Source of the DNA: Eledone cirrhosa
Taxonomy: Eukaryota
Assembly (NCBI GenBank): GCA_964016885.1
Contig: OZ024750.1
Location: forward strand, 21,452,001 to 21,516,000
Reading direction: 5' to 3'
DNA: 64,000 nt
In this document: positions 60,418-60,695 of the stretch, in pieces
Layout: each line of letters starts with the position of its first letter
How positions within the stretch are numbered: the stretch's first letter is position 1
Translations under genes and position numbers: made by a program
The notes under the pieces: model-generated
Told to the model about the DNA's origin: nothing
Seen by the model: the letters and a program-made list of their open reading frames with translations, nothing else
The model's database searches: none

Positions 60418-60695
60418 AAAGATGAAATCGAAAATGCAACTGGAGTCATATTTTTAAAAATATATATATATTTATTTGGTTCCTTTATAGGTTTCACAGT
60501 TCTTCTGCTTTTCAAAAGTACAGTTGAGATGGAGGGTCTGCGGTTTTTCTCACAGATGTGAGAAAAACCACAGACCCTCCATCTCAACTGTACTTTTGAA
60601 AAGCAGAAGAACTGCGAAACCGGTAAAGGAACCAAATATATATATATATATATTTTTTTAAATAAGACTCCAGTTGCATTTTCGATTTCATCTTT
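60418..60695. repeat. ~280-bp foldback palindrome centred at 60555-60556 (family 3), each arm carrying an HHR
   Basis: Arms are reverse complementary with few mismatches; 2-nt centre. Confidence 0.9.
60593..60628 (+). ncRNA. Minimal type I hammerhead ribozyme with U3:A8 core, predicted cleavage after GUA at 60625
   Basis: CTT-TTGAAAA-GCAG AAGAA CTGC-GAAA-CCGG-TA-AAG; palindromic ACCGGT; mutated mirror copy at 60483-60518(-). Confidence 0.7.

Follow-up and report, generated by a model that had tools for sequence, protein, structure and literature searches.

A palindrome bearing a U3:A8 minimal hammerhead motif in Eledone cirrhosa DNA is probably a folded-back fragment of a high-copy, likely PLE-derived repeat

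Minimal hammerheads were described in the pseudo-LTRs (pLTRs) of Penelope-like elements (PLEs), where they occur mostly as solo copies and show low activity, and this only as dimers (Cervera and De la Pena 2014, PMC4209133). According to the same survey, a U3-A8 variant is found in the Cercyon PLEs of Schistosoma mansoni (about 1,300 hits), minimal hammerheads may be paired on opposite strands at distances of 100–700 bp, and an extra nucleotide between A9 and G10.1 belongs to the consensus (over 80%). Penelope elements of Adineta vaga have inverted pLTRs with palindromes at the junction and an optional 31-bp tail, and self-priming was offered as the explanation (PMC3846280). In PLEs an inverted, 5'-truncated copy is frequent and (TA)n serves as a target, the mechanism that creates the inverted ends being described as still unexplained (PMC8557442). 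In the Poseidon element PAc of Anolis carolinensis, two reverse transcription start sites account for the tail and for two classes of 3' ends, and its hammerhead cleaves only in the presence of protein and is dispensable for insertion in vitro (PMC11167929). Non-LTR retrozymes, which are tandem repeats with type I hammerheads, were derived from the pLTRs of PLEs (bioRxiv 10.64898/2026.07.22.740005). The published features of PLEs include minimal hammerheads and their U3-A8 variant as well as inverted ends that stand head-to-head with a palindrome at the junction.

Here, we analysed a palindrome in a stretch of 64,000 nucleotides of Eledone cirrhosa DNA (the window); the features are collected in Table 1. 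The two arms meet at a GA centre (60555–60556) and are identical in 129 of 139 aligned columns, with eight substitutions and one 2-nt gap located in an AT run, and the RNA of the palindrome is predicted to fold into a single hairpin (-203.2 kcal/mol), a stability which none of 200 shuffled sequences reached. The near-perfect fold-back with a 2-nt centre, proposed in a sequence-only reading of this DNA, was thus confirmed. The bounds assigned there to the element, 60418–60695, proved too small, as in public reads the repeat carries on to approximately 60768. The palindrome is not a symmetric unit: the usual form of the repeat is non-palindromic and continues for about 70 nt past the right arm. 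We consider it probable that a fragment of a high-copy repeat, likely a PLE pseudo-LTR, stands here head-to-head with an inverted copy of itself, and that this copy likely arose through fold-back or template switch in the course of a single insertion. The locus resembles the A. vaga Penelope and other PLEs (PMC3846280, PMC8557442) in its head-to-head inverted 5'-truncated copy, junction palindrome, one-sided extension and AT-rich or (TA)n target, and it differs from them in that no more than a pLTR-like fragment (about 215 nt, without an ORF) is present, and in the length of the extension (about 70 nt versus 30–40 for the published optional tail). The AT-rich or microsatellite setting of the insertion is seen both in the two flanks of the locus and in the (TA)n loose ends at both boundaries of the family; since the flanks are repeats, any target-site duplication would be hidden.

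Table 1. Coordinates of the palindrome, its flanks and the related or compared features (positions in the window)
Feature	Position	Strand	Remarks
Left flank	60269..60417	.	compound (CA)n(TA)n(GA)n microsatellite
Left arm	60418..60554	-	5' part of the repeat fragment, duplicated in inverse orientation; 3' extension absent
Degenerate hammerhead motif	60483..60518	-	U3:A8 core kept, G10.1-U11.1 wobble, stem III ACCUAU
Fold-back centre CA-GA-TG	60553..60558	+	letters from 60553 on belong to the parent repeat; junction forms a 2-bp micro-hairpin
Right arm	60557..60695	+	collinear with the parent repeat of high copy number; likely a pLTR with truncated 5' end
Complete type I minimal hammerhead motif	60593..60628	+	stem I 3 bp, stem II 4 bp with G10.1-C11.1, GAAA
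3' extension of the same repeat	60696..60768	+	right side only; tail-like; deep read coverage to the end of the compared stretch
Right flank	60769..60791	.	(TA)n microsatellite
Third, older, non-palindromic relative	63501..63596	-	81.5% identity over 65 nt; GAAA decayed to GCAA
Comparator U3:A8 three-way hammerhead fold	14376..14469	-	long stems II and III

The right arm does contain the U3:A8 minimal hammerhead that had been proposed for it, with the sequence CUU-UUGAAAA-GCAG(AAGAA)CUGC-GAAA-CCGG-UA-AAG. Its core (60596–60625) follows the pattern N3-UGA-N7-R8-A9 with a U3:A8 pair, GAAA and a GUA site, cleavage being predicted after the A at 60625, and stem III is the palindromic, dimer-capable ACCGGU, which is also found in the third copy and is absent from the left arm. 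With a stricter descriptor this motif was the only match in the window, compared to 0.02 matches per window in 150 block-shuffled windows, none of which contained a compact-class U3:A8 match with a palindromic stem III; the descriptor is specific rather than sensitive, since it missed the other hammerhead folds of the window, which have bulged or long stems. The motif is like the Cercyon hammerheads (PMC4209133) in being type I, in the U3-A8 pair, G10.1-C11.1, GAAA and palindromic stem III, in the U-rich 5' and AU-rich 3' flanks, and in occurring mostly as solo copies and also as an opposite-strand pair. It differs from them in its host, in the length of stem II (4 bp versus 7–8), in lacking the extra nucleotide between A9 and G10.1 (a G directly follows A9, as in canonical hammerheads; the extra nucleotide is typical of the consensus but not required), and in that no linked ORF is shown for its family. 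The 3-bp stem I had been regarded as a weakness; the supplement of the same survey, however, includes 3-bp stems I in minimal PLE hammerheads of Lottia, Crassostrea and Caenorhabditis. With PAc the repeat shares a hammerhead near the pLTR end and two classes of 3' ends, whereas the PAc core is C3-G8 with assayed cleavage and the motif of the palindrome is U3:A8 and predicted from sequence (PMC11167929).

An intact hammerhead on each arm, as the sequence-only reading had it, was not confirmed. The left arm does retain the UUGAAAA core, but its motif lies on the opposite strand, C11.1 is replaced by U and CCGG has changed to CCUA, so that its stem III is no longer self-complementary (predicted self-duplex energy -8.3 kcal/mol for the right ACCGGU, +2.2 for the left ACCUAU and -2.3 for the mixed pair). 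The right-arm hammerhead had also been called unrelated to a motif at 14364, and indeed the two share no BLAST similarity and have separate folds; U3:A8 hammerheads thus occur in two unrelated families within the window (the 60593 motif and the 14376–14469 fold).

To characterize the parent repeat we compared four of 23 listed public runs with positions 60416–60768 (353 bases) at 80% likeness, with 60416–60486 and 60625–60667 skipped as repeats; the details below come from 40 of 57 difference rows and 23 of 4725 pieces listed. Run X1 consists of contigs and run X21 of raw reads from another study with the same species label, and X4 and X6 bear other organism labels. The palindrome stretch is a high-copy repeat, matched by 4689 X1 contigs, 3037 X21 reads, 11 X4 contigs and 7 X6 contigs. 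No RNA run was among those listed with the repeat, which has no bearing on its expression. X21 read depth is 815 at 60559, 110 at 60552, 57 at 60549 and 14 at 60541. One and the same unrelated upstream sequence begins before 60553 in 438 X21 reads, 51 X1 contigs and one X4 contig, and other copies begin at 60554–60556 straight behind (TA)n (182 X21 reads, 24 contigs); the loose ends upstream of the parent repeat comprise 30 letters of sequence only. The expected non-palindromic parent copies were therefore found, both in the reads, which are mostly of this kind, and in the window copy 63501–63596. Beyond the right arm the repeat extends as far as 60768 or further, and listed contigs join the hammerhead part to the part behind the AT run. 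As the parent is non-palindromic and continues past the right arm, the right arm represents the parent repeat and the left arm is its inverted duplicate. Moreover, G60590 and its counterpart C60521 are present in both arms, and another base is found there in 412 of 425 X21 reads and in about 99% of X1 depth; such a rare base common to both arms makes it likely that they were copied from one template.

Two classes of 3' ends could be distinguished. The shorter ends near 60698–60707, followed by (TA)n (6, 15 and 10 X1 contigs, 139 X21 reads), and it is to this class that the left arm corresponds. The longer ends near 60768, also followed by (TA)n, and its tail continues in the loose ends behind 60751–60754 in 30 X1 contigs and 303 X21 reads, another 200 X21 reads with loose ends there agreeing poorly with the tail. 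These two end places resemble the optional tail of PLEs, a likeness which we count in favour of the PLE reading, the greater length of the extension counting against it; also in favour are the high copy number, the 5'-truncated copies and the inverted 5' duplicate, known from read depth, loose ends and arm comparison. By analogy with the described elements, the repeat likely corresponds to the end of a PLE pLTR and has a hammerhead of the dimer type, and the palindrome is likely ordinary transposon debris. Reverse transcription would have stopped near the CA-GA-TG site, where the new strand would have folded back or switched template; about 137 nt would then have been recopied before integration into (TA)n-rich microsatellite DNA. 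The arms would have drifted since the insertion, neutral decay being the likely fate of this copy. Cleavage by the hammerhead of the parent element would require a dimer, formed through the ACCGGU palindrome, and would probably be slow or assisted by a protein.

A bolder version, which we think unlikely, would make the CA-GA-TG micro-hairpin a fixed self-priming site of the family, used again by several copies and not in one species alone; the family would go on generating self-antisense palindromes, which would bury their own ribozyme and supply the host with dsRNA, and, with the second, structurally unrelated U3:A8 family, the core would have arisen repeatedly outside schistosomes. If this were true, the self-priming model of PLE inversion could be tested by counting.

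Copies which cross the centre bear on another possibility, a dedicated non-autonomous palindromic family that spreads as a folded-back unit and always turns at the same centre. Among the 23 of 4725 pieces listed, two X1 contigs (depths 10 and 15.8, 90–91 nt, 10 differing letters in each) span the centre, reaching about 44 nt to either side, and one X6 contig crosses it as far as 60542, i.e., 11 nt past the parent boundary into the left arm; in addition, the 57 X21 reads at 60549 still fit. Nevertheless, such copies are a small minority (compare the depths of 14 at 60541 and 815 at 60559), their inverted lengths differ, and the crossing contigs listed are about 11% different from the locus. A fold-back hotspot in the parent would account for the crossing without any spread of the palindrome, so we consider a palindromic family improbable.

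Fold-back is not restricted to this repeat. After masking of simple repeats, 11 inverted repeats with a span below 1.5 kb were found in the window, and three other hammerhead families also occur in inverted repeats, folded-back examples being a copy of the 14364 family (40621–40694), a C3:G8 copy at 62315–62449 and a PLE fragment at 18475–19856. Fold-back is thus the rule for hammerhead-bearing repeats here. The 5'-truncated PLE at 18475–19856 has an ORF (18642–19151) whose best named match is an Octopus vulgaris protein (59%), a C3:G8 hammerhead-like motif at 19608–19635, and 148-bp inverted ends at 98% identity. Two PLE-like frames, 16855–16277 and 16388–15588, lie on the minus strand, with the 14376–14469 hammerhead about 1.1 kb downstream on the same strand; going by sequence motifs, we take the 16855–15588 frames to represent RT and GIY-YIG domains. 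No frame of this type linked to the repeat family of the palindrome was found in the 64-kb window or in the 30-letter loose ends of the reads, and within the window no ORF adjoins either the palindrome or the 63501–63596 copy. Pfam returned no family for any of the 10 window ORFs tried. Rfam gave no hammerhead family among five matches up to E 10 for 60565–60770 and no hammerhead match for 14350–14520, and a scan of the whole window gave only sub-threshold microRNA-like matches among the 150 of 447 rows listed. Pattern scans yielded 3 loci from metagenomes and 9 from viruses, all of which lack matching stems and show no BLAST similarity to the arm, and 0 loci in prokaryote genomes.

The missing reading frame, together with the microsatellites on both sides, would suit a hammerhead from a non-LTR retrozyme or another non-PLE repeat, with the palindrome produced by inverted duplication at the DNA level at a fragile microsatellite. 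Non-LTR retrozymes are likewise non-coding and have type I hammerheads (bioRxiv 10.64898/2026.07.22.740005). They are, however, described as tandem direct repeats, whereas the locus is a single inverted pair, at which no tandem copy of the hammerhead repeat was found, only the inverted arm and a relative 2.9 kb away; besides, the same preprint, as noted above, traces retrozymes to PLEs. The fold-back lies at the boundary where many copies begin, and the ORF-bearing PLE in the same window has an identical layout of inverted ends. An origin outside PLEs is therefore, in our judgement, very improbable.

We also considered what a transcript of the locus would look like. RNA reading through the palindrome is predicted to form a hairpin of about 137 bp, so dsRNA is structurally possible if the palindrome is transcribed. 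Stems I and II have a pair probability of 0.0 within the full palindrome, thus in a read-through transcript the hammerhead is predicted to be buried in the hairpin. For the right arm alone the pair probability is approximately 0.68 for stem II and 0.001 for stem I; given such low pairing of stem I, an active fold is not predicted for the monomer, in keeping with what is expected of this class. The motifs of the arms lie on opposite strands, hence one transcript carries only one of them in sense, and a dimer in cis between the two arms is ruled out by this orientation and by the broken left stem III.

The long hairpin is what could speak for a selected functional element, either a switch made of two ribozymes or a source of dsRNA for ADAR or siRNA pathways, particularly as palindromic repeats and the lizard Penelope were reported to be heavily edited and the editing level in octopus to be high (PMC5625713). 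Yet the left motif is damaged, drift has altered 10 of the 139 columns of the arms, and similar fold-backs are so frequent in the window that incidental editing would not indicate selection; we regard a selected function as highly improbable. A reading of the palindrome as surprising or as a two-ribozyme device was not supported, as the two motifs cannot be in sense together, both the U3-A8 variant and opposite-strand pairs had already been published (PMC4209133), and inverted pLTRs with palindromic junctions are typical of PLE insertions (PMC3846280, PMC8557442). Hardly any room is left for an assembly fold-back artefact, even though no contig among the 23 of 4725 pieces listed spans the whole of 60416–60768 and short-read assemblies struggle with inverted PLE ends (PMC8557442), because the arms differ by substitutions and a gap, the flanks are unlike on the two sides, the left arm has no counterpart of the right extension, and the same centre is also crossed in independent contigs.

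Variation within the family was followed in the reads and in the third copy. In stem II, position 60606 differs in 383 of 994 X21 reads, with no compensating difference at 60612 among the 40 of 57 rows listed; the other differing positions within the motif in these rows, 60615, 60616 and 60621, are CpG-type transitions. A paired-looking change at 60591–60592 accounts for about a quarter of X1 depth; with both substitutions on one haplotype, stem I would grow to 4 bp. The third copy has two double-sided changes, C-G to U-A in stem I and G-C to U-A in stem II, and all cells (100%) of stems I and II (3 bp and 4 bp) pair in the three copies. This covariation is not significant, as 57 of 500 shuffles scored as high in an alignment of three sequences only. 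At 63588–63596 the third copy shares a 9-nt motif with the upstream loose end of the parent reads, at an equal distance from the arm; a 9-mer is expected 1.6 times by chance in the window, thus only the spacing carries weight. A short frame ends at the core UGA, a candidate stop codon of a PLE ORF, and its conservation in the third copy is poor.

With the locus read as PLE debris, the palindrome enlarges the already long list of PLE-type minimal hammerheads by one family and that of inverted PLE ends by one case. In the literature searched, U3-A8 hammerheads were found in a single paper, for schistosomes, although a 2016 paper on dimer cleavage may already cover more; two unrelated U3:A8 families in another animal therefore extend the range. 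Octopus PLEs were linked to hammerheads in only one survey among the literature searched. For studying how PLEs make inverted ends, a family of high copy number that folds back recurrently at one point also offers a convenient data set.

Several further observations concern other hammerhead-bearing repeats of the window. End fragments of the 14364 family are located at 8364, 40611–40699 (folded back) and 42292–42342, and a shorter relative of the 18475–19856 PLE, again with inverted ends, at 38039–38353. The C3:G8 family of 62315–62449 and 49167–49426 has a 12-bp stem II and a palindromic TGCGCA; its 62.3 kb copy is folded back and its 49.2 kb copy retains upstream sequence. Just right of the palindromic element, a small hairpin fragment (60790–60833), which in its first bases agrees with the end of the 62295/49167 family, lies between (TA)n runs. 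Another family of short palindromes beside (TA)n (22985–23087 and 13227–13319) contains a CUGAUGA...GAAA stretch, which the descriptors used did not accept as a hammerhead.

Within the palindrome and its extension (60623–60722), a donor-like GTAAAG and the predicted cleavage site overlap, and about 100 nt downstream there is TAG with a pyrimidine tract; judging from these signals, a PLE intron could be present. Nested inverted repeats occur at 54490–54865 (outer 29 bp at 97%, inner 75 bp at 77%). Finally, an RTE-like LINE fragment at 10889–11320 has its best named match in a protein of the fish Scleropages formosus (72% identity), and this LINE family has possibly moved horizontally.
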